This document shows, in pieces, positions 1 to 14,662 of a stretch of DNA of 18,188 nucleotides. Every line of letters begins with the position of its first letter. Position 1 is the first letter of the stretch. The DNA comes from a virus (Duplodnaviria; Heunggongvirae; Uroviricota; Caudoviricetes), in IMG/VR virus record IMGVR_UViG_2671181094_000006; one strand, 5' to 3'. The notes beneath the pieces were generated by a model that saw nothing but the letters and a program-made list of their open reading frames with translations, was not told the origin of the DNA and did not search any database. Position numbers and translations under genes: made by a program.

Positions 1-537
1 TTACTCGTCCAGCAGAATCACTTTGCCGATATACGGCAGATGACGGTAACGCTGTGCGTAATCAATGCCGTAACCCACCACAAACTCATCCGGGATCGAG
101 AAACCGATAAATTCTACCGGGACGTTCACTTCACGACGGGACGGTTTATCCAGCAGCGTACAAATCGCCAGCGACTTCGGTTCGCGCAGGCTTAAGATCT
201 CACGCACTTTCGACAGTGTATTCCCCGAGTCGATGATATCTTCAACAATCAGCACGTCCTTGCCACGGATATCTTCATCCAGATCTTTGAGGATTTTCAC
301 ATCACGGGTGGTGGACATGCCGCTACCGTAGCTGGAGGCGGTCATAAAGTCGACTTCATGAGATACCTGAACTTCACGGCACAGGTCCGCCATAAACATA
401 AATGAGCCACGCAGCAGACCAACCAGCACCATATCGCTGCCGCTGTCTTTGTAACGCTCAGTAATCTGACGACCCAGTTCGGCGATACGCGCTTTAATCT
501 CCGCTTCGGGGATCATTACTTCTACAATATGTTTCAT
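1..537 (-). CDS. hpt: hypoxanthine phosphoribosyltransferase
   Basis: 178-aa ORF with ATG at 537 and TAA at 3-1. The product ([24 protein letters not shown]...[14 protein letters not shown]...) carries the PRPP-binding motif of type I phosphoribosyltransferases and matches enterobacterial Hpt as I recall it. An in-frame GTG at about 552 could be an alternative start. Confidence 0.9.
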
Positions 538-717
538 AATCTATATATCTCACTGATTTTAATCAGTTAAATTCAATCTCACACTATGCAATTCAGTAAA
601 TATTGATACACCGATTGATATACGGATTATCGCACAGAGCCGAAATCACGCATAAGCATGAGCACATTCCAAAGAGCTGGGGATTATAGCAAGGAAATAT
701 TGTAGGGGTAATGAATA

Positions 718-745
718 CCATGCCTGCTTACGATTGCAGGCATGG
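718..745 (-). terminator. perfect 10-bp inverted repeat hairpin (CCATGCCTGC-N8-GCAGGCATGG), possible terminator of the 755-1294 gene or an island-boundary palindrome
   Basis: Read directly from the sequence. It lies 9 nt downstream of the TAA of the 755-1294 gene on the minus strand; the trailing U-tract is only moderate (UAUUCAUU). Confidence 0.35.
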
Positions 746-754
746 TGCAGACAT

Positions 755-1294
755 TTAATCCATGAGGCTGTTCAGTGCTTGCTCAACACTTTCATACTTC
801 TGCGTAGTTGGTTTACCTGTTGCGTTTTTAACCATTGAGAACAAAACCACCTCGCCGCTTAGGTCTGAAACACCAGTTGACTCTAAATACGGCAATAATT
901 CTTTCTCATAGAACTCAATTTCTTTTAGTAGCATTTCATCAGGCCTACCAGCCCAAGAATTACGCTCCGGGGACTTTCCACGTTTTATAGAGTAATTAAG
1001 CGAAAATTCTTTATTTTCATATTTGAACTCAACTGCACCATCACAACCAAAGAAGCTTCCTGTGAGTTTTGAGAAATCAATGAGAGTATCAAGGCCGCCG
1101 TTATAAGTGGCTTTCAACTTAGGAGTCTGGCCTGTAATTGTAAATCCTTTAGATTTAAAAAATTCCAAAACATCTTTCTGAATAGCGGTAGCAGCATCAT
1201 TTATTTGTTTATTCAACAACTCGCGCCGAGGAGCGCTGAATTCTTCAATTTTTGCTTTAAGATCTTGTAGTTTCATTTTGTTAGCTAATGACAT
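755..1294 (-). CDS. hypothetical protein, AT-rich orphan cargo gene (179 aa from ATG 1294; the ORF track extends to 1369)
   Basis: Preferred start MSLANKMKLQDLKAKIEEF is preceded by AAGGAA at about 7 nt spacing. Codon usage is visibly AT-rich compared with hpt and the island backbone. No motif recognised. Confidence 0.6.
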   Translation of the reverse strand: MSLANKMKLQDLKAKIEEFSAPRRELLNKQINDAATAIQKDVLEFFKSKGFTITGQTPKLKATYNGGLDTLIDFSKLTGSFFGCDGAVEFKYENKEFSLNYSIKRGKSPERNSWAGRPDEMLLKEIEFYEKELLPYLESTGVSDLSGEVVLFSMVKNATGKPTTQKYESVEQALNSLMD

Positions 1295-1502
1295 ATAAAT
1301 TCCTTGTATATCCAGAGTAATAGCTGTGCATAGTCTATGCGATTTCATCCTACTGCTATAAAACATCAAATTCCATAAACATAACCATCAATTAGTTATA
1401 AATGCCTCGATGTTGAATGCGTCCCCCATACTCAACCGGGAATGGGCTGAGCACATTTATCATGACTGTGACCACCAGCCATGACGGCGGATTGTCATGA
1501 AT

Positions 1503-1547
1503 TACTAATGTATGATAGCACTGTCATACAATAAGGAATCTCCCACT
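1503..1547 (+). promoter_or_regulatory. conserved promoter/operator of paralog A (TATGAT -10-like element inside the inverted repeat TGTATGA-N8-TCATACA, then AAGGAA RBS)
   Basis: About 45 bp upstream of the start is conserved with the equivalent region at 5885-5929 (tgtatgatag..ct.tc..acaataaggaa). Confidence 0.45.
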
Positions 1548-1907
1548 ATGAGACTAACCAGCCGCAAAAAGACGATACTCAGCTACTTCGAACCGGATAA
1601 CCGCGACTGGGTGACGGGTGAGATCGGCGCACCTCCCCTTGATGTATCCGGCGTGGCGTACCTGCTGTATGGGACAGGCCTCGAAGACAACCGGCACTGG
1701 CTCGAATCCACCAGACGAACGCTGGAAGCAATGGTGAAAGATGGGTTGCTGGAGAGGTACCGGAGCAGGGAGGCGCGGAGTATCGTTATGGGCGGCGAGA
1801 CGACCGCTACCGTTGTCCGTTACGGCCTGCCGGGTACCGTTTCAGTGGTACGCGATACGGGAGGTGCAGACGGCACGATAGAAGGCGAATATGTGCGGGT
1901 CGTTTAA
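1548..1907 (+). CDS. conserved hypothetical protein, paralog A1 (119 aa), possible winged-helix-like regulator
   Basis: MRLTSRKKTILSYFEPDNRDWVTGEIGAPPLDVSGVAYLLYG... aligns along its whole length with the 5930-6289 product (MRMTSRKKEILSYFEPDNRDWVTGEIGAPPFDVSGVAYLLHG...). Start and upstream region are conserved between the two copies. Confidence 0.7.
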   Translation: MRLTSRKKTILSYFEPDNRDWVTGEIGAPPLDVSGVAYLLYGTGLEDNRHWLESTRRTLEAMVKDGLLERYRSREARSIVMGGETTATVVRYGLPGTVSVVRDTGGADGTIEGEYVRVV

Positions 1908-2095
1908 CGACGTGGATTATCTGGCCTCTTCCACTGGTAGGCTGGTGCCGTCATCCTCCGGCGGTGCCGTTCTTTAGCAGCGAGCGTTCCCGCAACCCTG
2001 CAACGTAACTCCAGCATATCGGTGGCATTCAGCTCATTCCCCTGCAGGCGGGCCAGCTCTTCAATTACCGCCTCGATTTTCTTCTGTTTTAACAC
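1904..2095 (-). CDS. small hypothetical protein A2 (63 aa, GTG start) with C-terminal APAYQWKRP...RR motif
   Basis: Convergent with A1, with the stops overlapping by 4 nt. The C-terminal motif is shared with the 6945-7130 product (RAPAYQWKKPAPRR). AGGAA lies 8 nt upstream of the GTG. Confidence 0.5.
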   Translation of the reverse strand: MLKQKKIEAVIEELARLQGNELNATDMLELRCRVAGTLAAKERHRRRMTAPAYQWKRPDNPRR

Positions 2096-2201
2096 GCTAT
2101 ATCTTCCTGCTCTATAGGCTCACCGGCTACGCCCTGAGCATCGTTATAAAAAGCCAGCCCCGGAGGGCTGGAATAACAGGAGCCCGCTGGCACACTTTGC
2201 T

Positions 2202-2789
2202 TTAATCGGTATCGTCGGCCAGGGCATACAGCAACGAAGGGATCACTCTCCGCATGGCTGTTTCTTCGGTTTCATCGCTCATGAGAGTCAGGGTGTAATC
2301 CCGGCACTCGTAAATCACATCATATGCAGACAGGCCGAACGCGCCGCCCGCAATGATCTGCCCAATTTCAACATCTGGCGTTTCAACAATCGACAGCCGG
2401 TAGCCGCCGAACGTCACAGGAGGGTTATAAGGCCCTTCGCTTACAAACAGCTCTACGGCCTTTGCAGCAACCTGGGCTCGTTCGTCCGGGTCCACCCCGG
2501 ACACCTTACCGGCACCTGACACCATGATGCGCTTAATCTCCGCAACACTCATTTCCACCAGCGTATACCCCTGCACCTCACCAGCTGGAGCAGGCTTGGT
2601 TTTACCCCTGGCATTCTTCGTACGCGGGTCACTGGCGCTGCGGTATCGTGCCAGATAAGTATCACAGGCCTCCTGGTCAATCTTCCCGTCAACCCGCGCC
2701 GGAAATCCTTCATGACTCTCCCAGTTATACAGTGCCTGCCGGCTCATTCCGGCATGTTTTGCGTACTGGCTGACGCTCATTAGTGACAT
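2202..2789 (-). CDS. HTH DNA-binding protein, phage Nu1-like (small-terminase-like N-terminus) / packaging-associated candidate
   Basis: N-terminus VSQYAKHAGMSRQALYNWESHEGFP resembles the lambda gpNu1 winged-HTH pattern (KKQLADIFGASIRTIQNWQEQGMP). AGGAG lies 7 nt upstream of ATG 2789. The gene sits beside a dense TGTCAA repeat array. Confidence 0.6.
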   Translation of the reverse strand: MSLMSVSQYAKHAGMSRQALYNWESHEGFPARVDGKIDQEACDTYLARYRSASDPRTKNARGKTKPAPAGEVQGYTLVEMSVAEIKRIMVSGAGKVSGVDPDERAQVAAKAVELFVSEGPYNPPVTFGGYRLSIVETPDVEIGQIIAGGAFGLSAYDVIYECRDYTLTLMSDETEETAMRRVIPSLLYALADDTD

Positions 2790-2825
2790 AATTTTTCTCC
2801 TGCCTCATTGTCACCGGCTGGCCAG

Positions 2826-3040
2826 TGTGTCAACCCGCCGGCGGGAAACTGTCAATCAAACGTCAAGGGATCAACCGCTTGACACTTTTTTCTGTCAACT
2901 TGACACTTTTCGGGCTGAAAGTGTCAATCAAACTGTCAATCAAAACTTTCACGAATTCCCCTGCATCACGCGCCGCCTCTGGACCTTAACAACCTGACAA
3001 CAAAAAAGTGTCAAGTGTAAAGTGTCAATCAAATTGAAAA
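2826..3040. repeat. array of TGTCAA / TTGACA motifs (four copies of TGTCAATCAAA, several GTGTCAA/TTGACAC, palindrome TGTCAAnTTGACA, 12-bp palindrome CCCGCCGGCGGG); candidate protein-binding (cosB-like or operator) region
   Basis: Read directly from the sequence in the 350-bp non-coding gap between the tfa stop (3138) and the Nu1-like gene start (2789). Confidence 0.6.
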
Positions 3041-3137
3041 CCTGCAGCTACAAAAACACTGCGGCGCGCAATGCCCGTGCCTTACAAAAGTCTCAGGAAG
3101 GACCCATTTTTTCTGAGGGCCATTCCATAGTTATCAC

Positions 3138-3563
3138 TTAATGAACTTCCGGCATCACAGGCCATTCAATATCTGGGGCATCATCAGGGTTAACACGACT
3201 GAGCAGAACGGAGTATTTTTCCCAGTGTTCCAGTCGCGTTTTTTCATCCAAGGTAGCCATTCCGTATTTCACAGCACGCGCTAAAGGGACGATAACGTCC
3301 TCAGCCTTTGTACGTTGCCGCTCTTTTTCAGCCCCAGCCAGCCTGGATAACTGTGCTTTGGTCTGTGGAGGTACATCGACCCACGAGGGCAAGCCATCAG
3401 CCCCTACCCCCCTTTGCTTACCTTCTGGTGGAACCCTGGTGAACTCGTGAAAAACGTTATCACTGACTGCTATAAGGTCCGCTGGTAGAGAATTGTTGTC
3501 CCGATAAGCTGGTAATAATTCATCAGGGTAAAAACACGCCGTTGACGCACTAAAATGATACAT
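3138..3563 (-). CDS. tail fibre assembly protein (Tfa-like chaperone)
   Basis: Start MYHFSASTACFYPDE and C-terminus HWEKYSVLLSRVNPDDAPDIEWPVMPEV match the conserved ends of phage Tfa chaperones (...W.KYR.LL.RVD...APDIEWP..P). Its ATG at 3563 follows the upstream TAG at 3566-3568 closely. Confidence 0.7.
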   Translation of the reverse strand: MYHFSASTACFYPDELLPAYRDNNSLPADLIAVSDNVFHEFTRVPPEGKQRGVGADGLPSWVDVPPQTKAQLSRLAGAEKERQRTKAEDVIVPLARAVKYGMATLDEKTRLEHWEKYSVLLSRVNPDDAPDIEWPVMPEVH

Positions 3564-3565
3564 GA

Positions 3566-4099
3566 CTATTCCCCTATAGCTAACCATCCAAAATTATCTG
3601 CATTACCCGAACTGCCGCTGATCCAGCCATATGCACGGAAACCGGAATTGGAATCATTGGTTACGGACACGTAACGATTTCCATCTGCGTACTTCGTAGC
3701 AACAATAGCAATAGCCCGCTTAGGAAAAGGTATCGGATACTGAACATTACCTGATGGTGAATTAATAGTGGCAGTTCCCATTTGAACAATAATATTTTTC
3801 TTTTCACCTGATGGTGTTCGGGTAGGAATAATACAGTAACCCTGTGAAGTAAGGGCACCTACGATGGGTTCAGATAGAAGGGCGGTGATCCTCAACTCAT
3901 CAATAACTTCGTTTAACTGACCATCATTTTCAGGCTCAAGCTGGCGGCCAGAACCCTCTACCACGCCCACCATCTCACGCTGCCAGGTATTAAAAATATC
4001 GGCAACAAGAATTGTTGGTGATACCCCATTAGCAACATTACCTTGTGTAAATTCCCCATTACTATCAGCAGTATCAGTGACTGAACTTATCTTACGCAT
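3566..4099 (-). CDS. tail-fibre-tip-like protein (177 aa), too short for a full fibre
   Basis: Directly upstream of and coupled to tfa, which is the usual fibre-chaperone arrangement. The C-terminal half is Gly/Ser/Asn-rich and looks beta-rich (...GWISGSSGNADNFGWLAIGE). The call is mainly positional. Confidence 0.45.
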   Translation of the reverse strand: MRKISSVTDTADSNGEFTQGNVANGVSPTILVADIFNTWQREMVGVVEGSGRQLEPENDGQLNEVIDELRITALLSEPIVGALTSQGYCIIPTRTPSGEKKNIIVQMGTATINSPSGNVQYPIPFPKRAIAIVATKYADGNRYVSVTNDSNSGFRAYGWISGSSGNADNFGWLAIGE

Positions 4100-4127
4100 T
4101 ATGCATATCCTTTAATTGATATCTTCG

Positions 4128-4586
4128 CTATATAGAAAGCGTATCTGCCATACTCACCGGCTCGATATACTTCTCAAGCGCTAACAGAGCGGCGTTAAAA
4201 CCAGCACGATAGCCGTTTGTGTCACCGTTAATCATGCTGTGTTGAAATGCCGCCATGTTCTGGTCTTCGGCATCAAGGAACTCCCAGCCAGGATAAACTT
4301 TCTCCATAGCCCGCCGGGTAAAACGACTGAGCTGGCGAGCGCTGCCTTTTAGTCTGGCAATAGCCTTCTGATGTGGGATCCCTTCCGCGATAAGATGAAA
4401 TGCCTGTATCGGATTTTGTTTTGCCGCTTTGCTCACCGCTATCAGATGCGCATCAGAATGGGGGCATTCAGGGAGTTCCTCTTCTTCAAGCGATTGCTGA
4501 AGCTGGTGCATACGCTGCATACGGCGCCCGGAAAAGCCATATGCATGCGCATCAGGTTGCTGCTTGTTGAGGTGCTGAAAGTTCAT
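4128..4586 (-). CDS. hypothetical protein, paralog of the 4607-5290 product (start taken at MNFQHLNK)
   Basis: Shares N-terminus (MxFxHL) and the central block WEF.D.E...NGY.A...AL.AL.K..EP with the upstream gene. GGAG lies about 9 nt upstream of ATG 4586. Confidence 0.6.
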   Translation of the reverse strand: MNFQHLNKQQPDAHAYGFSGRRMQRMHQLQQSLEEEELPECPHSDAHLIAVSKAAKQNPIQAFHLIAEGIPHQKAIARLKGSARQLSRFTRRAMEKVYPGWEFLDAEDQNMAAFQHSMINGDTNGYRAGFNAALLALEKYIEPVSMADTLSI

Positions 4587-4606
4587 AACGCTCATCTCCG
4601 CAGCTC

Positions 4607-5290
4607 TCAGAGAGGAACCTGCGATTTTAGGAGTTCGGCTTCTCGTGCCGGCCCTTCAATCTTGCCATTCACCCGACGGGTATCCCCCGGCAGGCTCACA
4701 CCAGATGCCCGGATACGATCGTTACGGCGTGCAGCAGCCTGCGCGACCTCTTCCCGGTACTCTTCGTCAGCCTTACGGCGAGCATTCACATTCTGAGGTG
4801 ACATAGGGTCATAGTCGTTTTGCATCTTAGATGCCTTGCTGGCTAATGCCTTAATCTCGTCTTCTGTCAGAGGCTCTTCCATCTTCTTCAGCGCCTTCAG
4901 AGCGCTACTCTGGGCAGCAGAGTAACCATTTGCATCACGGTTCTGCGTTGAAAACGTTAGCGCCGAGCGAGCTTTCTCTTCGTCATCCTGAAATTCCCAG
5001 GTCGGGTCATTCTCTTCCATAAACTTTTGGGTAAACACAGAAAGCGCCATCGGCGACGATGCCAGTTGCAGCTTTATTTTCTTCGAAGAAAGTTCCGTTT
5101 CCTTCAGCAAACGAACCGCCAGAACCGGGTTATTTTTTGCCTCCGGGGAAACCGCGACATTGTGGCCGCGACTGTGCTGCTTAGGTCTGGCGATCCGGGC
5201 GTCGTCACTGTCCAGTTTCAGTGGCACATTCCCGTTATCAGACTCGCCTTTCGTTTTGGTTTTGCCTGACAGATGCGAGAAATCAAACAT
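4607..5290 (-). CDS. hypothetical protein, longer paralog with Lys/Glu-rich C-terminal extension (start taken at MFDFSHLSGK; the ORF track extends to 5383)
   Basis: Paralogy with 4128-4586 supports the internal start at 5290 (GAGGAA upstream). The alternative start at 5383 also has a GAGGAAA RBS. Confidence 0.55.
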   Translation of the reverse strand: MFDFSHLSGKTKTKGESDNGNVPLKLDSDDARIARPKQHSRGHNVAVSPEAKNNPVLAVRLLKETELSSKKIKLQLASSPMALSVFTQKFMEENDPTWEFQDDEEKARSALTFSTQNRDANGYSAAQSSALKALKKMEEPLTEDEIKALASKASKMQNDYDPMSPQNVNARRKADEEYREEVAQAAARRNDRIRASGVSLPGDTRRVNGKIEGPAREAELLKSQVPL

Positions 5291-5327
5291 GGATGGGTTT
5301 TCCTCAGATAGTTGGGGCTGTTTTTTC

Positions 5328-5528
5328 TTATCTTTCGTACCGAACGCTCTTAGCGCCCATGCGGGTAACGTCATTAACGGCATGGCATGCTTTCCTCTGG
5401 TTGGCGATTATCCGGCGGAGCCACATGAGTTTTTTCTTCTGCTTTCTGAACAGGCGCTCTCTCTTCGCCGCGGCAAACCATTCCGGTAACACCCAGCTTG
5501 TTTTGCTCCTGCACTCCTGGCACGGCAT
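5328..5528 (-). CDS. small basic hypothetical protein (66 aa)
   Basis: Its ATG overlaps the stop of the upstream 58-aa gene as TAATG, suggesting translational coupling. No motif recognised. Confidence 0.35.
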   Translation of the reverse strand: MPCQECRSKTSWVLPEWFAAAKRERLFRKQKKKLMWLRRIIANQRKACHAVNDVTRMGAKSVRYER

Positions 5529-5704
5529 TACTTTTTATTTGTTTCATGTCTACTAATCCCCTGACGTAAAAGGTGACGCGCCAGCTCCTGAATACTCGGG
5601 GCTGCGCCTACGGTAGAACGTCGGCATTCATCCTCACGGAGGCGCTGTAAACCTTCGAGAATCGGCTGATCAACAAGAATCGGCTTTTTGTTAGTGACTG
5701 CCAT
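5528..5704 (-). CDS. small putative DNA-binding protein (58 aa, ribbon-helix-helix/Arc-like pattern); not in the ORF track because it is under 60 aa
   Basis: Translated by hand: MAVTNKKPILVDQPILEGLQRLREDECRRSTVGAAPSIQELARHLLRQGISRHETNKK. A strong AGGAGG RBS lies 7 nt upstream of ATG 5704. It is the first gene of the leftward operon, divergent from 5930-6289. Confidence 0.45.
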   Translation of the reverse strand: MAVTNKKPILVDQPILEGLQRLREDECRRSTVGAAPSIQELARHLLRQGISRHETNKK

Positions 5705-5884
5705 TTCCTGACCTCCTGATACTGGTTAAACGTACATACTTCTTCTGTATGGGGTTAACTTATGATCAATAAAATAAATCGTCAAGATAAAATATTTTAA
5801 TTAAAAGGGTTGCGGACTACATGAGGGGGTACTGATTGCGTTACAAAATGGAGGGGAAAGTTAAGTAGCCATTCCTCACCGCTT

Positions 5885-5929
5885 CTTATTGTATGATAGT
5901 GCTATCCCACAATAAGGAACCTGCCAGCC
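5885..5929 (+). promoter_or_regulatory. conserved promoter/operator of paralog B (TATGAT -10-like element, inverted repeat GATAG-N2-CTATC, AAGGAA RBS)
   Basis: Conserved with 1503-1547. Confidence 0.45.
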
Positions 5930-6289
5930 ATGAGAATGACCAGCCGCAAAAAAGAGATACTCAGCTACTTTGAACCGGATAACCGCGATTGGGTAACAGG
6001 TGAGATTGGTGCGCCGCCGTTCGATGTGTCGGGTGTGGCCTACCTGCTTCATGGCATGGGATCATTCGGTAAACGCCACCAGCTCGAATCAACCCGGCGT
6101 ACGCTCGAAAGCATGGTTGCCGGTGGACTGCTTGAGCGAATGACAGTGTATGAATCCCGTCAGGTACGGCGCGGCGGTGAAACCAGCGCAACAGTCGTGC
6201 GCTACGGTTTACCGGGACAGTGTGCCGTTGTGCGAGATAGTGGCGGCGCTGATAACGCAATACCAGGTGAATACATGCGGGTCAGTTAA
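5930..6289 (+). CDS. conserved hypothetical protein, paralog B1 (119 aa)
   Basis: Full-length similarity to the 1548-1907 product; about 80% nucleotide identity over the first 130 nt by eye. Confidence 0.7.
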   Translation: MRMTSRKKEILSYFEPDNRDWVTGEIGAPPFDVSGVAYLLHGMGSFGKRHQLESTRRTLESMVAGGLLERMTVYESRQVRRGGETSATVVRYGLPGQCAVVRDSGGADNAIPGEYMRVS

Positions 6290-6824
6290 GAGCCTGCAAT
6301 CTGTCGTTGATGCGGCTCAGGTCGTAAACCCGGCGTTCAATATCCAGCATCAGGAAATTGTGGATCTCGGCCTGCTCAGGATTATCAGACTCTCTGGCCT
6401 GTAATAGCAATTCATTGTATCCATGCAAGCCGCCTGAGTTTTCCGCCGGGGTGGTGCCTTTCCCACGCAGGCAGCTAATGGGCTGATTACTCGTATCGTG
6501 TGTTTGCTTCTCCAGCACAATGACGCAATCCCACCAGTCGCCAAAGTCATACGTGTAAACCAGCTTGTCACCCTCATTCTGGAGCGCTGCCCATAGTGGT
6601 GTGATTGCCGCGTTACCCATGCTTTCACCCTCACCCCATACGCGATACTCGCTACCTAGATCACCTTTACGGCCTTTCTCGAACATATACAGATGTTCGT
6701 CATTCCAGCCAAAAGCCAACTGGATCACCGCGTGAAGTTCACTAAAGGGGATTTGCTCTGGAACCAGCACACGCCGCCATATTGGTGGTTTGCTGTCTCG
6801 GATGGTTATCTTTAGCTGGTACAT
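6282..6824 (-). CDS. pRiA4b ORF-3-like family protein (start taken at MYQLKITIRDSKPPIWRR)
   Basis: The N-terminal signature YQLKITIRDSKPPIWRRVLVP...LHAVIQLAFGWNDEHLYMF matches my recollection of the PRiA4b ORF-3-like domain. AGGA-containing RBS upstream of ATG 6824. Stop overlaps the B1 stop by 8 nt. Confidence 0.6.
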   Translation of the reverse strand: MYQLKITIRDSKPPIWRRVLVPEQIPFSELHAVIQLAFGWNDEHLYMFEKGRKGDLGSEYRVWGEGESMGNAAITPLWAALQNEGDKLVYTYDFGDWWDCVIVLEKQTHDTSNQPISCLRGKGTTPAENSGGLHGYNELLLQARESDNPEQAEIHNFLMLDIERRVYDLSRINDRLQALN

Positions 6825-6944
6825 GCAAATCCTGAATAAATGCGAATCGGAAGGATAACGATACTGACGCACTCACAATTCTGTAAAGGTGAATAAAGGT
6901 AATTTGCTTAATACGCATAAGTTACATGTGGAATAATCCCATAT

Positions 6945-7130
6945 CTACCTGCGCGGCGCTGGCTTCTTCCACTGGTAGGCAGGCGCTCGCATCATCTCCC
7001 CGAACCGTTTACGCCGGACTGTATCAGCTTCAATAATACGTTCCATCTCCCGAACCTCTACCGGGGTAAGCTGGTGGCCTTCATGCTCCATTTTGGCAGC
7101 GGTCAATAAAGCTATTTCGCGTGGTGTCAT
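6945..7130 (-). CDS. small hypothetical protein B2 (61 aa) with C-terminal RAPAYQWKKPAPRR motif
   Basis: Paralog of the 1904-2095 product by its C-terminal motif. ATG at 7130. Confidence 0.55.
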   Translation of the reverse strand: MTPREIALLTAAKMEHEGHQLTPVEVREMERIIEADTVRRKRFGEMMRAPAYQWKKPAPRR

Positions 7131-7266
7131 ACGCCATACCCTTTGGAAGGATGAAACACGCCCGGATTAAATTTTATTTTTCGCGGGTATAAACATTCGA
7201 TGAGGCGGGCAGTGCTTAAGGCTCAGGATTGCAGAGATTTGGCCTCCCCCTCCCGGTGATAGTTTA

Positions 7267-7363
7267 TTGCTTGATGTGGACGGCTTGCTATATTGGCGGA
7301 GAATGCAAATTGTCGCAGAAGTCTATCCCGCTCCCTGACGCCCCGTGCGGGCGTTTTGCTTTT
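7267..7363 (+). ncRNA. candidate small RNA (about 60 nt): sigma70-like promoter plus intrinsic terminator on the plus strand in a minus-strand gene context
   Basis: -35 TTGCTT (7267-7272), 16-nt spacer, -10 TATATT (7289-7294). GC-rich hairpin ACGCCC-CGTGC-GGGCGT (7338-7354) is followed by TTTTGCTTTT. No ORF of substance. Confidence 0.25.
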
Positions 7364-7973
7364 ACAAAGTCAGGCCAATGCCTCTGGCTGCTTTCCCCGT
7401 CTTACGCTCAATCACGCCCGTGATTCTATCTACTACCGGACTGAATGCCTGCCAGTAAGCCATCTCCATTGCTGACAACTCTGCCCGCTTCCTGTCAAAC
7501 GTAGCCCAGCGCATCCCCTTTGGTTTTGGGAACATGCGAATATCATTAAACAGGTTATTGGTAAGGTCATTGTTGCCCCATATCGCGCATCGCTGCTGGC
7601 GTATCTTCATTCGCATCCTGTCCAGTCTGTCGGCGCTCTGGCTTTTATAGTGGAGTTTCCAGCATCCCCGGCAGCCAATATCTTTTTTGCCGATATACAG
7701 CTTCGCTACCCGCTTTATGCAGTGGGGACAGACGTACCATTCCCGCACACCATACCCGGCTTGTGTGGTCGTGGTTCTGATTGCCCGTGTAACGCCGTTG
7801 ATTGTCATGGCGTAGCTGTCGGCTTGCCGGAAGGTATAAAACGTTCCGCTTTCGGTCTGGGTATAAAGCTGCGTCCCCGGTTCGGCGTCCGCCAGCCTGC
7901 TACGCATGTGCGCAAGGAATGGCAACCCTATGCGGGGCAGGTCGGTGGTATAGCTGCGTGTTCTGCCTCTCAC
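7362..7973 (-). CDS. conserved island protein with putative zinc ribbon (CPHC...CRGC); possibly YagK/YfjJ (inovirus Gp2-like) family
   Basis: 203-aa ORF with GTG start at 7973 preceded by AGGAGG at 7 nt spacing. Cys pairs lie in WYVCPHCIKRVAKLYIGKKDIGCRGCW. The family assignment is from memory and weak. Confidence 0.6.
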   Translation of the reverse strand: MRGRTRSYTTDLPRIGLPFLAHMRSRLADAEPGTQLYTQTESGTFYTFRQADSYAMTINGVTRAIRTTTTQAGYGVREWYVCPHCIKRVAKLYIGKKDIGCRGCWKLHYKSQSADRLDRMRMKIRQQRCAIWGNNDLTNNLFNDIRMFPKPKGMRWATFDRKRAELSAMEMAYWQAFSPVVDRITGVIERKTGKAARGIGLTL

Positions 7974-7989
7974 TGGCTGGCCTCCTGTG

Positions 7990-8260
7990 AATTACTGCGA
8001 ATCAAACTGCGAATGCGCAAAAATGAATACGAAATAATATGCGTATTTTACTGTAAATTGCGCACCAGTTTTGCAATTTCACATCAATAAAGCCAGTAAC
8101 CGCGCGGGTTGAGGATGGTTTGCGCATTGGTATCCGTTTCGTTTTGCGCAGATTTTTTGTGAACTGCGCAAATCGCATTGCCGCCGTTAGAATCCGTCAG
8201 ATGGTACGCACGCTGAATGCGCAGTTTTGCCGCGTACCTGACTGCGTACTGCGAACCAGT
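7990..8260. repeat. cluster of palindromic TGCGCA hexamers (at least 6 copies) and CTGCGAA motifs (at least 4 copies) in a 420-bp non-coding region
   Basis: Read directly: atgcgcaaaaa, attgcgcacc, tttgcgcatt, tttgcgcaga, ctgcgcaaat, atgcgcagtt; actgcgaa occurs four times. Lies between the PerC-like stop and the 7362-7973 gene start. Confidence 0.4.
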
Positions 8261-8395
8261 GGCGCGAACCAGAATATTATGGACAACCTAAATCACGTTC
8301 TGGCTTCCAGCCCGCGACTGGCGCGGTTCTCTCTTCATATCGGCTTTGAGTCTGTCCAGTACAGTCCAGAATTTACAGCCGTTTTAGTGCGAACA

Positions 8396-8707
8396 TTACT
8401 GCGAACAGTCGCCCCCGATGGTGGCCTGTCGTTGCTTCTTGCCGCCATTTAACCGGAAGGCGTTACCGTTCGGTTGCGCTATCCCCATGCGGTGTTGCGT
8501 TTCGGTAACAGCTTTATGCAGATCGCCAAAGTCCTCAACCTTCACGGGCGGGCGCTTCACGTTCTCCAGACACGTTTCACGGCGGCGCTTTATCCATTCC
8601 CGATCATCGTCCTCGGTGCATAACAGCATGACTTCCATCCATCGCGCGGCGGCGCGTCGGTACAGCCCTTTTGCTTCCAGATCCTCGGCTTTACTGTCGT
8701 TTACCAT
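8396..8707 (-). CDS. PerC-family transcriptional activator-like protein
   Basis: N-terminus KAEDLEAKGLYRRAAARWMEVMLLC...REWIKRRRETCL resembles the PerC pattern (AE.LE..GLWRRA..RW.EV). GAGGGGG RBS upstream of ATG 8707. Confidence 0.55.
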   Translation of the reverse strand: MVNDSKAEDLEAKGLYRRAAARWMEVMLLCTEDDDREWIKRRRETCLENVKRPPVKVEDFGDLHKAVTETQHRMGIAQPNGNAFRLNGGKKQRQATIGGDCSQ

Positions 8708-8718
8708 GTGTATCCCCC

Positions 8719-9180
8719 TCAGAATGGATCTTCATCATCAAACGGCGGGCGCTGGTCAAAATCATCAGGGGTGTTATATAGCTCCCATCCCGGCGCGGAT
8801 TGTGTTGCGTGGCCTCTGCTGGCTCCGCTTGCTTTGACTGATTCGGCCCGCTTCCCGCCAGGGCGTACCGTTCTGGCGCTGATTACACTGTCGGCTACTA
8901 CCTGATAACCTTGCTGTATACCGCCATCCTTGCCCGTCCACTGATTGACCTGCATCGCTCCGGCAACACTGACTAAATCGCCTTTAACGTGTCCTGCCAG
9001 TGCGTCGGCCTGTTTGCCGAATGCCACCACGCCCAGCCAGAAAGTAACCTCTCCGCCCTCTGCTGCATGGCATGGCAGTGCCACCGCTAAACGCCCCATT
9101 GCCATGCTTGTACCGTTTGCTGTGGTGCGGGTCTGCGGGTCTGCGACTAAACGCCCGTAGGCTGATATCTGTGCTGTCAT
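8719..9180 (-). CDS. ssb: single-stranded DNA-binding protein
   Basis: OB-fold pattern (GRLVADPQTRTT.NG...W..VVAFGKQAD...KGD.V.V.G....QW) and acidic C-terminal tail DDEDPF typical of SSB. Confidence 0.8.
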   Translation of the reverse strand: MTAQISAYGRLVADPQTRTTANGTSMAMGRLAVALPCHAAEGGEVTFWLGVVAFGKQADALAGHVKGDLVSVAGAMQVNQWTGKDGGIQQGYQVVADSVISARTVRPGGKRAESVKASGASRGHATQSAPGWELYNTPDDFDQRPPFDDEDPF

Positions 9181-9283
9181 TTTGCGAATACCTCGAATTA
9201 TTAGTTTTGCTAATGAAGATTACCCGGCTCCGTCTTATTGTGGGACACCTTCGCCAGATTTTTTTGTATATAAACAAAAAAGT

Positions 9284-9545
9284 TGGTGGTTCAGGTGGTT
9301 CAGTGGTTCAGTACCCCTCTAGGCCGCGCCATCTCTGGGTTTTGCTGAACCACCTTTTAAATTTATCTGGTGGTTCAGTCGCCCTTCTTGGTGGTTCACT
9401 GCCAGCCAGTGAAAATAATCCGTTTCTCTCTGGTGGTTCAAAATACCCGTTTGGTGGTTCAGTGGTGGTTCACTTTCTTACAAAAAAACATTATAAATCA
9501 ATAACAATTACTTACTGAACCACTGAACCACCTGAACCACCACAA
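9284..9545. repeat. iteron array, putative satellite origin of replication (about 12 copies of GGTGGTTCA(G/C) in both orientations, flanked by A/T-rich stretches)
   Basis: Read directly, for example tggtggttcaggtggttcagtggttcag and ctgaaccactgaaccacctgaaccacc. Lies immediately downstream of the primase-helicase gene, analogous to the P4 ori/crr iterons. Confidence 0.7.
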
Positions 9546-9567
9546 AAAACCTCGCACGTGAAAAAGA

Positions 9568-12345
9568 TTATTGCTCTGGCTGGCTTTCCTCCCCATCCGG
9601 CAGGAATTGCAAAACGTAAACGTTAATCTGCCTCCCCTGAATGCGCGGGCTTTTCCTCTGAAATTTTTTTCCGTCTGCCGAAGGGGTAAGCATCCCCGAT
9701 TCTTTCAGGACGCGGGCCACCTGCTGCCTGTTAAACCCCTTAGCAATATCCTTATCGAAAGTGTCGGGGAACGTGTAAAACGTTATCGGTGAATCGTCAT
9801 GATTTCCGCGCTGCCTGTATCCAGCCAGATTATGAATCGGCAGGCTGGCGGGGTCGTAAGGCAGCGGCGCGAATCGACTCAGGCCATAGGCATTTAAAAA
9901 TGCCTCCGCCTGCTCGATGATCTGCTGGTGCTCTTTGTTCCCCGTGCCGAACTCTTTTAGCCATGCGTTATAGGCGTGCTGTATCGCATCCCGGCACGTT
10001 TGAGCATCCCAGCCAGTAACCACGCCACCCATCAGTAAAGCGGCCTCCAGAATGGCAAATCTTGCCCCTACACGGTGAACCTGTTCCCCATAGTCGGCAG
10101 GAATTAGACTGCGCCAGCGGGCCTCACACTCACGAACGGCATCAATCGCCTGTTGCTGGTGGTCTGAAAGCCATCTGATCCACTCCCTCCCGGCAGCGCC
10201 ATGATGGTTCTGGTAAGCGTCTTTCAGCGCGTCGGCGTGGTCTCTCCCTGTCTGGTACTCATGAAAGCGCACCGCCTTACTCAGCGGGATATTCAGCAGT
10301 CGCACCAGTTGCCCCGCTTTTGTCTTGCGTCCTGCGGTGGAGATGAACGTTTCTAAATCCATTTCCCCGGTGCTGATTGCCACGGTGCGCCAGCGTTTCA
10401 GATCCCGGTTGCCTCCTTCCTTTGCTCCCTGCAATTTCCCCACGCCGTTAAACAGGGCATAGGCAGACTGAGCAACGCTTATCGGGTCTGCGCCCTGTCC
10501 GACTTCATCCAGTGGCATCAGCCCGTCATTGTGGGCGGCGGCCTCGTTTATCAGCCCCAGCGCCGTTCCGTACCACGTCAGGCGCAAGGCATCAGGGTTG
10601 CCATAAAGACTGCTCGCCACGTTCTGCGTGGTTGTTTTCCCGGCGCTCGATTGCTCGTAAAAATGAATCCCGAAGCCGTCACGCTCCGCCAGCCCGATTA
10701 ACGGTGCTGCAAGTGCGGCGGCAATGCCTGTCATCATCGCGTAGTTACCGTATGCCAGACGCGCAACACTCTTACGCCAGCTCTCTGAGGTTCCCGCCAC
10801 GGTGTACCCGGCAGCGGCAGAACTGCGGCCACTGAATAAAACGGGTTGTGCAGGTGCGCCGATAATCTCCCCGTCCGGCATGATGTATGCCCCGCACTGC
10901 CAGCCAGTAGCGTGAGCAACACGCCACAATTCACGTGAGCCGCTACGCTGTAACCAGTCAGCCAGAATCGCCCGCAAGCTGCTTTTGGTGGTGACGTTAA
11001 CCCCGCCCGCTTTCAGGGTGCGCCAGCCTTCGCGCTCCCCGATATCAGCCAGGGGGATAGCCGCTGTTGTCGGTATGCCTGCGCCAAAGGCCAGCCAGCG
11101 TAATATCAGATACTGATCCTTGTCGTCCCGCCCGGTGCCGATAACGTCCATCGGTGAGGCCAGCCAGCTTTCATTGTTGATAATCTCGCCGCTTTCCTTG
11201 TCCACTTTAGGCGTGATCCAGTAAACGCCATCTTTGCGGCTCTCAATGCGGGGTTTTAGCGGGTCTTTCTCTGGCTGGTCAGTTTTACCGCCCTCAATGG
11301 CCTGTAGTTGTGGTTTCACGCATTCCCCCTGCGGCTGGTACATCGAATCATTAAACGCAGCCGTAGCGACTTCCAGCCCGTGTTGCTGGTGGTAGTCGTT
11401 CCAGTCAGCTTTGCTGTCAGTCGGTGGCAGCGATACCCAGCCAGCCACGGATAAAGCCGCTTTCTCTGCGGCCTCCTTCCCGATGTTGGTGGCTCCGGTT
11501 TCGGAGGCTGCTGTAGGGTGGTCGTTATCTGCGGCGATAATAATTTGCGACTGCGGGTGTTTCCGGCGCATTACTCCGGCAACGTGGATCAGGTTCCCGG
11601 CGTCAATTGCCGCCACTGTGAGCGCGTCAGGCCGCATCTGGTGAACGGACAGGGCGGTAGCCAGCCCCTCGGCAATCACGACGCTTTGAGGCCGTTCCAG
11701 CGCGTTTACGGCGTAATATGCCCCGCGCTTTGCCGATCCCTTAATGAGTCGCTTTTCTCCCTGCGGGGTGATGGTCTGCGCGGCTGTGACTGCGCCGGAT
11801 TCATCCACCAGCTCCAGCAATAACGAACCATCGGGCATAAGCGGGTATTTAAACCCGGTCAGCCCTTTTGATTGCAGGTACTCAGATTCTCCCTGTATGG
11901 ATCTCAGGCGCATTCCGGTATACAGACGGGCAAACGTAGCCCTTCGCTGATCTGCGTCCTCTGCTGCCTGTTTCTGGCGCTCCTGCTCACGCTGCTGGCG
12001 GTCTGCGGCTAACTGCCTCTGTCTCTGGCTGGCAGCGTCTGGTGCTGATTCTGCGGCCCGGTAATCAATACCCAGCACATCAGCGGCAAGCTGTGCCGCC
12101 TCCGTGGTGTCGCAGTTGTTCACCTTCTTAATCAGGTCTAAGCCATCGCCCGCGCCGCACTGGTTGCAGATAAAGCTGCCGCGCCCGTTGTCGTCGAATC
12201 TGAAACGGTCTTTCCCACCACATGCAGGGCAGGGGGCATGGCGGCGCGATGAATCAGGAACGTCGATAGACAATCCGGCCAGCACATAAGGCCATCGCCC
12301 TGCTGCGGCGCTGGTCACTTCGCGGATAAGGTCGATATTACGCAT
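9568..12345 (-). CDS. primase-helicase (P4 alpha-like: N-terminal zinc ribbon, TOPRIM primase, C-terminal P-loop NTPase)
   Basis: 925 aa. Zinc ribbon CPACGGKDRFRF...CNQCG, TOPRIM acidic motifs (VVIAEGLATALS ... IIIAADND), Walker A-like SSAGKTT. GGGAGG RBS upstream of ATG 12345. Confidence 0.9.
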   Translation of the reverse strand: MRNIDLIREVTSAAAGRWPYVLAGLSIDVPDSSRRHAPCPACGGKDRFRFDDNGRGSFICNQCGAGDGLDLIKKVNNCDTTEAAQLAADVLGIDYRAAESAPDAASQRQRQLAADRQQREQERQKQAAEDADQRRATFARLYTGMRLRSIQGESEYLQSKGLTGFKYPLMPDGSLLLELVDESGAVTAAQTITPQGEKRLIKGSAKRGAYYAVNALERPQSVVIAEGLATALSVHQMRPDALTVAAIDAGNLIHVAGVMRRKHPQSQIIIAADNDHPTAASETGATNIGKEAAEKAALSVAGWVSLPPTDSKADWNDYHQQHGLEVATAAFNDSMYQPQGECVKPQLQAIEGGKTDQPEKDPLKPRIESRKDGVYWITPKVDKESGEIINNESWLASPMDVIGTGRDDKDQYLILRWLAFGAGIPTTAAIPLADIGEREGWRTLKAGGVNVTTKSSLRAILADWLQRSGSRELWRVAHATGWQCGAYIMPDGEIIGAPAQPVLFSGRSSAAAGYTVAGTSESWRKSVARLAYGNYAMMTGIAAALAAPLIGLAERDGFGIHFYEQSSAGKTTTQNVASSLYGNPDALRLTWYGTALGLINEAAAHNDGLMPLDEVGQGADPISVAQSAYALFNGVGKLQGAKEGGNRDLKRWRTVAISTGEMDLETFISTAGRKTKAGQLVRLLNIPLSKAVRFHEYQTGRDHADALKDAYQNHHGAAGREWIRWLSDHQQQAIDAVRECEARWRSLIPADYGEQVHRVGARFAILEAALLMGGVVTGWDAQTCRDAIQHAYNAWLKEFGTGNKEHQQIIEQAEAFLNAYGLSRFAPLPYDPASLPIHNLAGYRQRGNHDDSPITFYTFPDTFDKDIAKGFNRQQVARVLKESGMLTPSADGKKFQRKSPRIQGRQINVYVLQFLPDGEESQPEQ

Positions 12346-12359
12346 TCGTGTTACCTCCC

Positions 12360-12986
12360 TCAGTGCGCCGCTGGCATTTCAGGCAAGCCGTTTTCATTCA
12401 GATCGGCAATGAATCCATCGTGTAGCTCTGCCAGCGTTTCACGCCCGAACGGGGTCAATTCCCCGCGCTCCGTGTCGATCATGGCCTGATAAAAAACAAT
12501 GGCGTTCGCTGTTCCCTGCTCAATGCCGTAGCGCTCAATCATTGCGCCCTCCATGTTGTTAGCCATCGCCAGACGTTCCGCGAACGGGTAAACCACAATC
12601 CCCGCCGTGCCATTTGAATAAAACGTCACCAGCGACGATTTGCCGTCATCCTCCGTGATGGTGGTTGTGCCGTTTTCGCGCTTCATCTCAGAAATGAACG
12701 TCGCAGCAATCAGCCAGCGCCACATAGTGACGTTATGCTGCGCGGTAAAGTCGAACCAGCCACGCGCCCCGCCATCAGCAACGGCAAAATGTATGGCGTA
12801 TCCGATATCTGGCTTGTCGTCGTACTCTCCGGCGTCAAGGCCGTTCACGGCGCTCTCGTAGCTGATAAGAGCAACCAGCTCAAATCCCCCGGCATCATTG
12901 CGGGTCATGATATTGACGCCGTGCGGTGTGGCTTCGGCGCGTAATACGTCGTCATTTCCCGGTGTGAATTTCTCTACGTTGCTCAT
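12360..12986 (-). CDS. hypothetical protein (208 aa), last gene of the small-gene operon upstream of the primase
   Basis: ATG overlaps the upstream stop as ATGA. No motif recognised. Confidence 0.6.
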   Translation of the reverse strand: MSNVEKFTPGNDDVLRAEATPHGVNIMTRNDAGGFELVALISYESAVNGLDAGEYDDKPDIGYAIHFAVADGGARGWFDFTAQHNVTMWRWLIAATFISEMKRENGTTTITEDDGKSSLVTFYSNGTAGIVVYPFAERLAMANNMEGAMIERYGIEQGTANAIVFYQAMIDTERGELTPFGRETLAELHDGFIADLNENGLPEMPAAH

Positions 12987-13195
12987 GCTTTGCCGTCCAG
13001 ACTCAAATCCATATCAACTAACTCGCCTTCTACTGAATCCATCAGCTCGGGGATACCATCCAGAAGGGTAATGACTGCGCCAATAAGATGATCCGTGCCG
13101 CTATCTTTTTTAATCGGTGCTTCAAGCCAAAGAGAAAGAACTTGCTGCGCTTGCTTGATACGGCAGGCTGAATCAATCAGGGATAACTTGCTCAT
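12983..13195 (-). CDS. hypothetical protein (70 aa)
   Basis: Translationally coupled (ATGA overlaps at both ends). Confidence 0.55.
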   Translation of the reverse strand: MSKLSLIDSACRIKQAQQVLSLWLEAPIKKDSGTDHLIGAVITLLDGIPELMDSVEGELVDMDLSLDGKA

Positions 13196-13452
13196 GCGCT
13201 GCCCTCCCGATACTCGCGCATCTTCGTTAGTTCATCAGCCAGGCGATTAACTTTGCGCTCGGTTCTAATGGTTGCGCATCTCAATTCGGTGATTAATGTC
13301 GCAAGTCTGGCACCATAAAGCGGATTGGCGGCACGTAATGGCCCGTCCAGATAAAGATTCCATAACTCAAGCAATTCACTGGCATAGCGCACCGCTGCCG
13401 TTGCGTCACCTGTCGGGATTGTTTCTGGTTCAATTACGGCGACTGTATTCAT
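13192..13452 (-). CDS. hypothetical protein (86 aa)
   Basis: Translationally coupled (start/stop overlaps). Confidence 0.55.
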   Translation of the reverse strand: MNTVAVIEPETIPTGDATAAVRYASELLELWNLYLDGPLRAANPLYGARLATLITELRCATIRTERKVNRLADELTKMREYREGSA

Positions 13453-13712
13453 GCGCTGCCCTCCGCATCAATACGGGCTATATCGACAATCGCCAGGACT
13501 TTATCCAGCCAGCAATGCACGATGGCCGCCTGCTCATCGTCGAGGCGTGGTGCCAGCTCAGTCATAACGTAAGCCAGACCATTACGGGCGCGGGTCATGC
13601 GTTCCGCGGTACGCTCTGCCAGCGTAAAATCTTCCGGGTAGGGTTGTTCACGGGATAACATCGCCTCGGCCTGAAGCACTGCAGGATGGAGATAGATAGT
13701 GTGAATGTTCAC
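13449..13712 (-). CDS. hypothetical protein (87 aa, GTG start)
   Basis: GTG at 13712 overlaps the upstream stop as GTGA. AGGAGG lies 7 nt upstream. Confidence 0.55.
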   Translation of the reverse strand: MNIHTIYLHPAVLQAEAMLSREQPYPEDFTLAERTAERMTRARNGLAYVMTELAPRLDDEQAAIVHCWLDKVLAIVDIARIDAEGSA

Positions 13713-13888
13713 GCTGCCACCTCCTGAACACGGGTGATGCGAACGTGTTTATAACCGCCCTGCTGCGCCAATAACTGAGCGGTCGATTTGGCTGTATCCG
13801 GGCTGGCACCGGTCAGGGTGTAGTGAATGCCGACGGTGTTACCGCGCTTATTAACCGCGTATCCGTCAATCTGGAAGGTTTTACGCAT
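13709..13888 (-). CDS. hypothetical small protein (59 aa; start taken at MRKTFQIDGY, the ORF track extends further)
   Basis: GGAGGTG RBS lies 4-5 nt upstream of ATG 13888. The longer ORF-track start lacks an RBS. Confidence 0.55.
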   Translation of the reverse strand: MRKTFQIDGYAVNKRGNTVGIHYTLTGASPDTAKSTAQLLAQQGGYKHVRITRVQEVAA

Positions 13889-14084
13889 GACGCACCTCCG
13901 ACACCGGCAGGCGAGCAGCCAGAGAGAGGATAAAGTGCGGCGCCAAAATGCGGCGGGCGTCACGTTCGGTTGCGGCCTCGACGGACAGGCGGCAGGGAGT
14001 GGCCTTTTTGTCGTGACGGTTGAGCGCCAGAAAGCGCCAGATGTAGTTGTTCCGCCCTTGCGGGTGTGTGATATGATCGTTCAT
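13881..14084 (-). CDS. hypothetical small protein (67 aa, MNDHITHPQG...), first gene of the leftward operon
   Basis: This is the C-terminal 67 codons of the 391-aa track ORF 13881-15056. GAGG RBS upstream of ATG 14084. The rest of that long ORF crosses a promoter region, an opposite-strand gene and terminators. Confidence 0.5.
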   Translation of the reverse strand: MNDHITHPQGRNNYIWRFLALNRHDKKATPCRLSVEAATERDARRILAPHFILSLAARLPVSEVRHA

Positions 14085-14190
14085 AGCTGCCTCGTTATCT
14101 ACGCTAACGTTGGTGGTTAGAGGCCCGTTGGTGTTGTCGCACCTGCGGGCTTCGCTGTTTTTGTGCCTTACCTGTGCTTTAGCTGTGGAT

Positions 14191-14253
14191 AAGGTGTTTA
14201 AATACCTTATATCAAGGTGTTTAAATACGTCAAGCCAAAAGTATTTAAACACT
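14191..14253. promoter_or_regulatory. operator-like repeats: AAGGTGTTTAAATAC twice in direct orientation plus one inverted copy (GTATTTAAACAC), in a divergent promoter region
   Basis: Read directly. The repeat is centred on the palindrome TTTAAA. Lies between the leftward operon start (14084) and the rightward small gene (14317). Confidence 0.55.
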
Positions 14254-14316
14254 TCACAAATCTGTAGAGATGATTTATTTTCTCTAGTGTTAAAACACCA
14301 ACAGGAATCATCTTCA

Positions 14317-14520
14317 ATGGCTACAGGGCACAGAAACAACAAGTCTGCATACAAGGGAATCAGATTCCCATATGAATTGGTTGAGGAAATTGACGCCAGC
14401 GTAGAGCGAGAGAAAGCCGAAAACTCCGGGGCCAATTTCTCCGCATGGGTGCTGGATGCCTGCGGACGTAAGCTCAAATCAGAGCAGCGCAAAAAATCCA
14501 AAGCTGAGCCAGAGGCATGA
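14317..14520 (+). CDS. small putative DNA-binding regulator (67 aa, ribbon-helix-helix-like), candidate island repressor
   Basis: MATGHRNNKSAYKGIRFPYELVEEIDASVEREKAENSGANFSAWVLDACGRKL... The only plus-strand gene in this region, divergent from the replication operon across the operator repeats. The ORF-track N-terminal extension from 14110 looks non-coding. Confidence 0.5.
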   Translation: MATGHRNNKSAYKGIRFPYELVEEIDASVEREKAENSGANFSAWVLDACGRKLKSEQRKKSKAEPEA

Positions 14521-14662
14521 GTTATGCCTGACTCAACACGGTGTAAATGGCGAGACGCAATCGCTGTTGTTTTTTTAGTTGCAACTGCGTATTCCTCATA
14601 CTGGATAGTTAAGGCTATCGTGTCGCTAATCAGGTAACTGAGTTGGAAAAGCATAAAGCAGA

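Follow-up and report, generated by a model that had tools for sequence, protein, structure and literature searches.

What could be the role of a small AT-rich gene that stands at the very end of a satellite-type island, next to the chromosomal gene hpt? The question is raised by the IMG/VR virus record IMGVR_UViG_2671181094_000006 (Caudoviricetes), a stretch of 18,188 nt that was analyzed as a whole and is referred to below as the window, with positions counted from its first letter. The window begins with hpt (1-537, minus strand), and everything that follows represents a satellite-type island about 16.7 kb long. The final island gene before hpt, designated here ORF179, had been singled out in a reading made from the letters alone (the sequence-only reading) as an orphan lacking recognizable motifs in the integrase-distal accessory slot of an island of the phage-inducible chromosomal island (PICI) type. 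According to the present analysis, ORF179 is a self-contained cassette of foreign composition and moron type (upstream block, gene and hairpin), which occupies the variable last slot of a PICI-family satellite in the 5' end of hpt; the probability of this description is estimated at about 0.85.

The AT-Rich Gene Adjoining hpt

755-1294, minus strand: ORF179, coding sequence of 179 amino acids (translation, RefSeq coding sequence and homologs)
1300-1305, minus strand: Shine-Dalgarno sequence AAGGAA, 5 nt 5' of the ORF179 ATG (read from the sequence; AAGGA or GAGG is kept in homologous loci)

The longest open reading frame (ORF) at this place, 755-1369 on the minus strand, opens at TTG, and an in-frame ATG at 1294 yields a protein of 179 residues (MSLANKMKLQ...). 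The ATG is accepted as the start, since the MSL N-terminus is common to all ORF179 homologs, AAGGAA precedes it by 5 nt and the RefSeq annotation WP_053289900.1 represents the same 540-bp coding sequence. The GC content of the gene is 38.1% (33.9% at third codon positions) versus 50.8% for the island (624-18188) and 55-59% for the neighboring genes. The earlier description of a 179-residue AT-rich gene at 755-1294, at the far end of the island beside hpt, is thereby confirmed.

Between ORF179 homologs the ratio of nonsynonymous to synonymous substitution rates (dN/dS) is 0.08-0.23, dS has reached or approaches saturation for most pairs, and 37 columns are invariant in an alignment of 18 sequences of the family. 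ORF179 is a real, conserved gene, as follows from purifying selection and from the confident AlphaFold model discussed below.

Distribution of the Family and Variability of the Slot

The gene is found in only 3 of 5,426 complete Escherichia coli genomes, 5,425 of which match just the hpt part of the query. Presence of the gene at this locus in island-free genomes had been named in advance as an argument against an accessory role; the gene is absent from island-free genomes, and all three E. coli carriers have it inside the hpt-gcd island.

Close relatives always reside in PICI or capsid-forming PICI (cfPICI) satellites, as the last gene at the end distal to the integrase, and occupy three or more chromosomal sites (hpt, rpoD/mug and fis among them). 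In cfPICIs they are located directly after terL (beside mug/rpoD in Citrobacter and Edwardsiella, at hpt in Enterobacter, and on one metagenome contig). The gene that precedes them in classical PICIs is TerS-like (Yersinia beside rpoD; two more genomes beside fis or a P2-like prophage). Distant relatives, with 24-35% identity, are embedded in prophages: the first between the lysis cassette and terminase, the second (P0029) between lambda-like I and J, and the third inside a myovirus baseplate cluster, next to hub and wedge genes. Plasmids carry the family as well. A relative with 33% identity is one of three annotated ORFs of the Photobacterium plasmid pPH1 (4,288 bp; locus L040, 2037-2594), and another lies between traG and traD of a 311-kb F-type conjugative Vibrio plasmid (locus L041, 9001-9558). 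In the F plasmid itself, exclusion genes are located between traG and traD. The label of an orphan has to be dropped, since ORF179 belongs to a small family distributed over satellites, prophages and plasmids.

The loci of this family show classic moron anatomy. The GC content of the gene is 32-42% versus 47-58% in the 4-kb flanks, being 12-20 points lower at nine of the nine loci checked. At all eight loci with downstream sequence available, the stop codon is followed by a strong hairpin; five of these are canonical terminators with a GC stem and a T-run, also where the gene lies within a tail operon (between I and J and in the myovirus baseplate operon). The sharp GC drop relative to the flanks, the terminator immediately after the gene even within a tail operon, and the insertion between adjacent conserved genes are shared with the classical morons, which form promoter-gene-terminator units in the late operons of lambdoid phages (HK97 gp15, lambda lom and bor, phi80 morF and cor), and P0029, between I and J, occupies exactly the place of phi80 morF. 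Most characterized morons, however, encode membrane or surface proteins, whereas the ORF179 protein is soluble and cytoplasmic, and the promoter of the gene is putative. Homology to phi80 morF was considered and rejected (hhalign probability 0.3%).

The comparison of related islands for presence or absence of the gene, proposed in the sequence-only reading, was carried out with terL, ORF179 and the att arm of the Enterobacter cfPICI as the query against the 5,426 E. coli genomes. In 20 E. coli cfPICIs, whose terL is 92-94% identical, the match ends at or just before the terL stop codon and the gene is absent; 17 further E. coli genomes match at about 78% identity, also ending before this codon. 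The ORF179 part of the query was matched only in the three PICI genomes, from 16 nt inside terL. In the four cfPICIs inspected the slot is filled by a 63-aa ORF (two islands), by a DUF3892 protein, or by a 199-aa 'tail assembly protein' together with a 62-aa ORF. At dinD, the slot of a sister PICI whose TerS-like and 63-aa proteins are 94% and 92% identical contains a KilA-N gene instead. The content of the slot is thus variable among near-identical islands. Together with the att core described below and the absence of the gene where the island is lacking, this supports the view of ORF179 as an accessory gene that fills the cargo slot at the integrase-distal end of an island of PICI type.

Differing small genes follow terL in the 92-94% identical E. 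coli cfPICIs at the fis site (locus L039, 5176-5970, E. coli FDAARGOS_1283; L038, 5313-5621; L037, 5165-5356). Among them, a gene for a 'tail assembly protein' (199 aa) in an element that only steals tails may merit attention.

Boundaries of the Cassette

717-746, minus strand: stem-loop 9 nt past the ORF179 stop, perfect 11-bp stem (717-727 with 736-746), 8-nt loop (fold and compensatory changes)
1295-1381, minus strand: upstream block of ~87 bp travelling with ORF179, candidate promoter/operator region (upstream alignment of Citrobacter, Enterobacter, Edwardsiella and IMG/VR loci)
1328-1340, minus strand: palindrome GCATAG-A-CTATGC (exact copy once in the window)
1347-1352, minus strand: -10-like hexamer TAGGAT (TAnnAT in all six variants)
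~1364-1381, minus strand: last ~5 codons of cfPICI terL, recombination boundary of the cassette (BLASTN of the window against locus L016, 84% identity from inside the TerL C-terminus)

The hairpin behind the gene had been described as a 10-bp stem at 718-745. It is real and its stem is perfect, and the length is corrected to 11 bp at 717-746. The 66-nt fold around it has an energy of -22.8 kcal/mol (z = -4.26), none of 200 shuffled sequences being as stable, and compensatory changes are seen in 4 of 11 pairs (three distinct homologous loci). No U-run is present 3' of the stem, which explains why the terminator scan of the window made no call there. The hairpin could serve as a transcription terminator and the 3' end of the cassette, insulating hpt.

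On the other side of the gene, the symmetry of the palindrome is kept by changes in both arms in the Citrobacter and Edwardsiella copies, and the block 1295-1381 may have promoter activity. Homology of the window to the cfPICI cassette starts at ~1381, in the last five codons of a terL that is otherwise absent here. Since the homology begins within the end of terL, the cassette was acquired by recombination from a cfPICI-type element. Recombination likewise moves it among satellites, prophages and plasmids.

Integration of the Island into hpt

519-538: att core, island/chromosome junction, CTTCTACA(A/G)TATGTTTCATA (three-way alignment)
602-623: 22-bp sequence ATTGATACACCGATTGATATAC with an internal direct repeat (ATTGATA twice), second copy beside the integrase (repeat family D7)
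683-688, minus strand: perfect TATAAT facing hpt, between the hairpin and hpt (kept as TTGCTATAAT in the Enterobacter cfPICI at the same site)

Three complete E. coli genomes carry, between hpt and gcd, related islands whose terminal 1.6 kb is identical. The junction was determined by alignment of the island-free hpt-gcd region (locus L042, 840-1080), positions 519-700 of the window and the integrase-side junction of locus L001 (34690-35125). In island-free genomes the match to the window stops at about 545. Because the island-free region could be aligned with both junctions, integration is assigned to the 5' end of hpt: the insertion site is not intergenic but falls within the initial 20 bp of the coding sequence. 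The att core covers the hpt start codon, the six following codons and one upstream base.

Integration alters hpt codon 4 (Thr to Ile) and shifts the native hpt promoter by ~16.7 kb, to the integrase side of the island. With this promoter displaced, hpt must be transcribed from island DNA, to which all 214 bp separating hpt from ORF179 belong. The TATAAT at 683-688 is a candidate replacement promoter supplied to hpt by the island; its poor -35 accounts for its not being called in the promoter scan.

The 22-bp repeat at 602-623 was considered as an att site upstream of hpt and rejected, since the alignment with the island-free hpt-gcd region places the core at 519-538. This repeat is probably an arm-type integrase-binding site. 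In L001, family D7 is represented at 18063-18084 and 34736-34757 (95% identity).

Protein Family and Predicted Fold

ORF179 is a member of a new, uncharacterized family of soluble proteins. The computed pI of the protein is 5.75, and no hydrophobic N-terminus appears in the computed hydropathy. A search of 5.8 billion clustered proteins revealed 19 clusters at 90% identity, with matches of 48-100% identity; their members come without exception from Enterobacterales and are ~179 aa long. When 1.84 billion representatives were searched exhaustively with a profile, 41 clusters at 50% identity were obtained, nearly all consisting of stand-alone proteins (170-198 aa). Few distant members were recovered when the broad family alignment was used in a second, word-indexed search. 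Across 33 diverse members only L9, L12, R23, Y129, P135, L137 and G147 are near-invariant. None of the conserved residues of these members is Cys or His, their pI is 5-7 and their hydropathy is negative.

As the sequence-only reading had stated, no motif could be recognized. Pfam, NCBIfam and PADLOC (PADLOC-DB 2.0 at E <= 0.1) gave no match to the ORF179 protein, and the only library match is phrog_14564 (PHROG 14564, function unannotated; E = 4.8e-22, residues 1-171 on profile positions 1-164 of 170). Searches of the 33 diverse members against Pfam and PADLOC at E <= 1 returned nothing consistent, PADLOC giving just three single-member matches at chance level (E 0.003-0.04). Only chance matches (E 0.5-1) were obtained in a sequence profile search of the PDB. 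With the ORF179 protein and two distant relatives as queries, tblastn gave zero matches in 50,697 phage genomes, phi80 included, and a scan of GTDB species representatives found no relative. WP_053289900.1 is unmentioned in the literature searched, and the papers on cfPICIs and on the Enterobacter satellite do not describe ORF179.

The AlphaFold2 model of ORF179 (pLDDT 92.7, pTM 0.83) predicts an N-terminal helix of 46 residues, five beta-strands, a helix of 23 residues, a beta-hairpin and a short C-terminal helix. Frataxin/CyaY and type III secretion chaperone-like folds resemble this model in Foldseek with E-values that are not significant. ORF179 differs from both in two extra strands and a much longer first helix, and it has neither sequence signature; for frataxin/CyaY in particular, both a significant fold match and the sequence signature are missing. 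Judged from the model, the resemblance is one of generic topology, with no sign of membership or shared function.

Possible Function: Interference with Other Phages

A function of the gene is likely, given moron anatomy in every context examined, purifying selection and the spread over satellites, prophages and plasmids. The lack of conserved catalytic-type residues, of a membrane segment and of a partner gene points to stoichiometric action by protein binding. The product, an alpha/beta protein that is soluble and cytoplasmic and whose long N-terminal helix is conserved, would most likely act stoichiometrically by binding another protein. The function preferred here, tentatively and at somewhat below even odds, is single-protein immunity or interference against other phages through such binding. 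ORF179 would be expressed from the resident element and could block a step of the cycle of an invading phage by binding a phage protein. A little more doubtful is the wider proposal that the family represents new effectors of unseen fold for anti-phage or inter-element competition, spread as a promoter-gene-terminator cassette over PICIs, cfPICIs, lambdoid and myovirus prophages and plasmids, and binding a phage protein, possibly of the tail tip or baseplate, through the conserved N-terminal helix.

The phage-directed function is suggested by two precedents, immune systems at PICI ends and the Tai proteins, which bind phage tail proteins and are encoded in such loci. Immune systems are found at both the 5' and the 3' end of PICIs (PMC11364771). 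The immune cargo at the 3' end of PICIs and cfPICIs, described in the work of Penades and Fillol-Salom (PMC11364771), resides in the same element type (integrase, Bro-N/Ant antirepressor, DUF927/Toprim primase, PerC, TerS-like helix-turn-helix (HTH) protein). ORF179 has the same place, last before the integrase-distal att site, with variable occupancy and foreign composition, and likewise lies outside the conserved satellite modules. It differs from that cargo in matching no described system (PADLOC 2.0) and in being invariant in the hpt-site lineage, where the variation is found at 3138-4099. The 5' slot of the window, beside int, also holds an AT-rich gene without matches (16030-16869), which was counted in favor of the phage-directed function.

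Tai, a single-protein, non-enzymatic system, blocks tail assembly and is found in P4-like elements and PICIs as well as in the moron loci of phages (PMC11364771). Like phi80 gp63 (TaiEcA), ORF179 is a single-gene, non-enzymatic, cytoplasmic protein of roughly 20 kDa, and carriage in phage moron loci and PICIs is shared. The ORF179 relative between lysis and terminase genes has the location reported as typical of tai in phages, and two relatives adjoin tail-tip J or baseplate genes, whose products are of the kinds targeted by Tai. Location and orientation differ, however: the reported place of tai in PICIs is beside pri and not at the 3' end, and tai of phi80 is transcribed in the direction opposite to the late operon, while the relatives of ORF179 share the orientation of that operon. 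Membership of ORF179 in Tai itself was rejected, as hhalign of the 33-member profile against phi80 gp63 gave a probability of 2.1%.

Several points weigh against the phage-directed function. Neither homology nor experiment ties the family to defence, the PADLOC matches of the 33 members being at chance level; the family profile is linked to TaiEcA with a probability of about 2%; and the 50,697 sequenced phage genomes contain no member of the family. For expression in the resting island, the scan called no consensus sigma-70 promoter upstream of ORF179 on this strand. In two cfPICIs the gene is co-oriented with terL and lies 70 bp after it with no terminator between; late read-through into the gene is therefore likely in cfPICIs, and the gene is possibly a late one. 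Furthermore, ORF179 is invariant in the hpt-site PICI lineage, the 100% identical protein being present on 477 contigs, and the segment which does vary in this lineage is located just before the TerS-like gene (3138-4099; tail fibre and chaperone, SLT-domain protein, or small ORFs). The same pattern would be expected of a backbone gene specific to this lineage.

Other Possible Functions

The same 70-bp spacing lends some weight to the view, unlikely on the whole, that ORF179 is expressed late, as a virion factor or one that manipulates the helper. Produced together with the packaging or tail operon, it would act on tail-tip or baseplate assembly as a chaperone, as an adaptor or by interference with the helper, and the benefit would go to the satellite's or phage's own transfer, not to the host. 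All homologs are co-oriented with late operons, two of the three prophage contexts are inside tail modules (lambda-like I/J; baseplate hub and wedge), and the satellites concerned steal tails or encode tail-fibre and assembly genes. However, the gene is dispensable to the element type, as it is missing from 37 terL-matched E. coli cfPICI-type loci, and it occurs on plasmids that make no virions and, in one copy, between lysis and terminase genes. PHROG provides no structural annotation. The terminator directly after the gene in tail operons and the GC drop of 12-20 points are hallmarks of morons, not of core morphogenesis.

A counter-defence or establishment factor could bind a host immune component or sponge an immune signal, aiding the incoming satellite, phage or plasmid. 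A small, soluble, non-enzymatic protein encoded by a single gene suits this role, as does a family found on satellites, in prophages, on a tiny cryptic plasmid and on a conjugative plasmid. Anti-defence genes are usually located in early or leading regions, and the position of ORF179 at the far end of late operons, integrase-distal in the island, is atypical for them; the F-type plasmid copy, between traG and traD, is outside the leading region too. The protein is mildly acidic and hence no DNA mimic. On balance this role is distinctly unlikely. Anti-restriction by DNA mimicry was rejected on charge (pI 5-7).

Improbable, too, is a lysogenic-conversion factor acting on host physiology, for instance by driving or buffering the expression of the promoter-severed hpt. 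Such a role accords with the moron architecture, with the entry of the island into the first 20 bp of hpt and displacement of its promoter, and with the position of ORF179 immediately upstream of hpt in the same orientation. The same gene is, however, terminal in islands at fis and rpoD/mug, and the host genes that flank these sites are not consistently oriented; the gene is also present within prophages and plasmids. The hairpin and a separate TATAAT box lie between ORF179 and hpt, and the signal peptide or membrane segment expected for a surface or virulence role is absent.

The Divergent Neighbor ORF119

1548-1907, plus strand: 119-codon ORF (ORF119)

The sequence-only reading took this neighbor for a divergent regulator-like gene and asked whether it controls ORF179. 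The divergent arrangement stands, with 253 bp between the two genes in the window and in all hpt-site PICIs with the identical ORF179 protein; the regulatory part does not. Library scans detected neither an HTH nor another domain in ORF119. That the two genes form one unit in which ORF119 regulates ORF179 is highly improbable and largely refuted by co-occurrence: in tblastn an ORF119 homolog is absent from every other type of ORF179 locus (Yersinia, Citrobacter, Edwardsiella, Enterobacter, metagenome, prophage and plasmid), ORF119 being found only in hpt-site E. coli-type PICIs and beside PRiA4_ORF3 genes. The GC content of ORF119 is 59% versus 38% for ORF179, and the upstream block travelling with ORF179 ends at ~1381, short of the ORF119 promoter region.

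A different partner is suggested by the second copy of ORF119 in the island (5930-6289, 74% identical, within 5930-6872). This paralog, like homologs elsewhere, is paired with PRiA4_ORF3 (PF07929) in convergent orientation with overlapping 3' ends. The copy beside ORF179 has no such partner in the window; in E. coli VG1046-3E9 the partner is retained at the ORF179-side position (locus L002, 19009-19903). ORF119 and PRiA4_ORF3 look like a separate two-gene cargo module, and neither protein has a PADLOC or PHROG match. Several inverted repeats, composed of TCATGAC/GTCATGA and TGTATGA/TCATACA units, are located in the region upstream of ORF119 (1460-1531), immediately ahead of its ribosome-binding site; they may be operators of ORF119.

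Other Genes and Variable Cargo of the Island

1904-2095, minus strand: 63-aa ORF
2202-2789, minus strand: 195-aa protein with a TerS-like HTH
3138-4099, minus strand: short tail-fibre gene and assembly chaperone (library matches)
9568-12345, minus strand: Zn-ribbon/Toprim/DUF927 primase (library match)
16962-18188, minus strand: tyrosine integrase (library match)
Minus strand: Bro-N/Ant-type protein, antirepressor type (library match)
Minus strand: SSB and PerC (library matches)
Minus strand: PRiA4_ORF3 protein (library match)

Two products are encoded in the segment 3138-4099, a short tail fibre whose C-terminal domain is Gp53-like and a Caudo_TAP chaperone for tail-fibre assembly. Sister islands that share its flanks carry a 608-aa SLT-domain protein or small ORFs in its place. 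It is thus a second variable region, and it may retarget the tails of the helper.

At the opposite end of the island, the 5' cargo slot adjoining the integrase is occupied by a second strongly AT-rich gene (16030-16869; 279 aa, 37% GC, 29% at third codon positions). Pfam, PADLOC and PHROG searches gave no match to it.

Implications for Satellite Biology

On the strength of the sequence comparisons, ORF179 can be regarded as a fair candidate for a new phage-directed function; an activity that breaks with precedent is nowhere indicated. The island represents a case of a satellite that integrates at the start of hpt and has to re-supply the hpt promoter. Should the idea of defence prove wrong, this locus would still illustrate cleanly how modules are exchanged at the last codons of terL.
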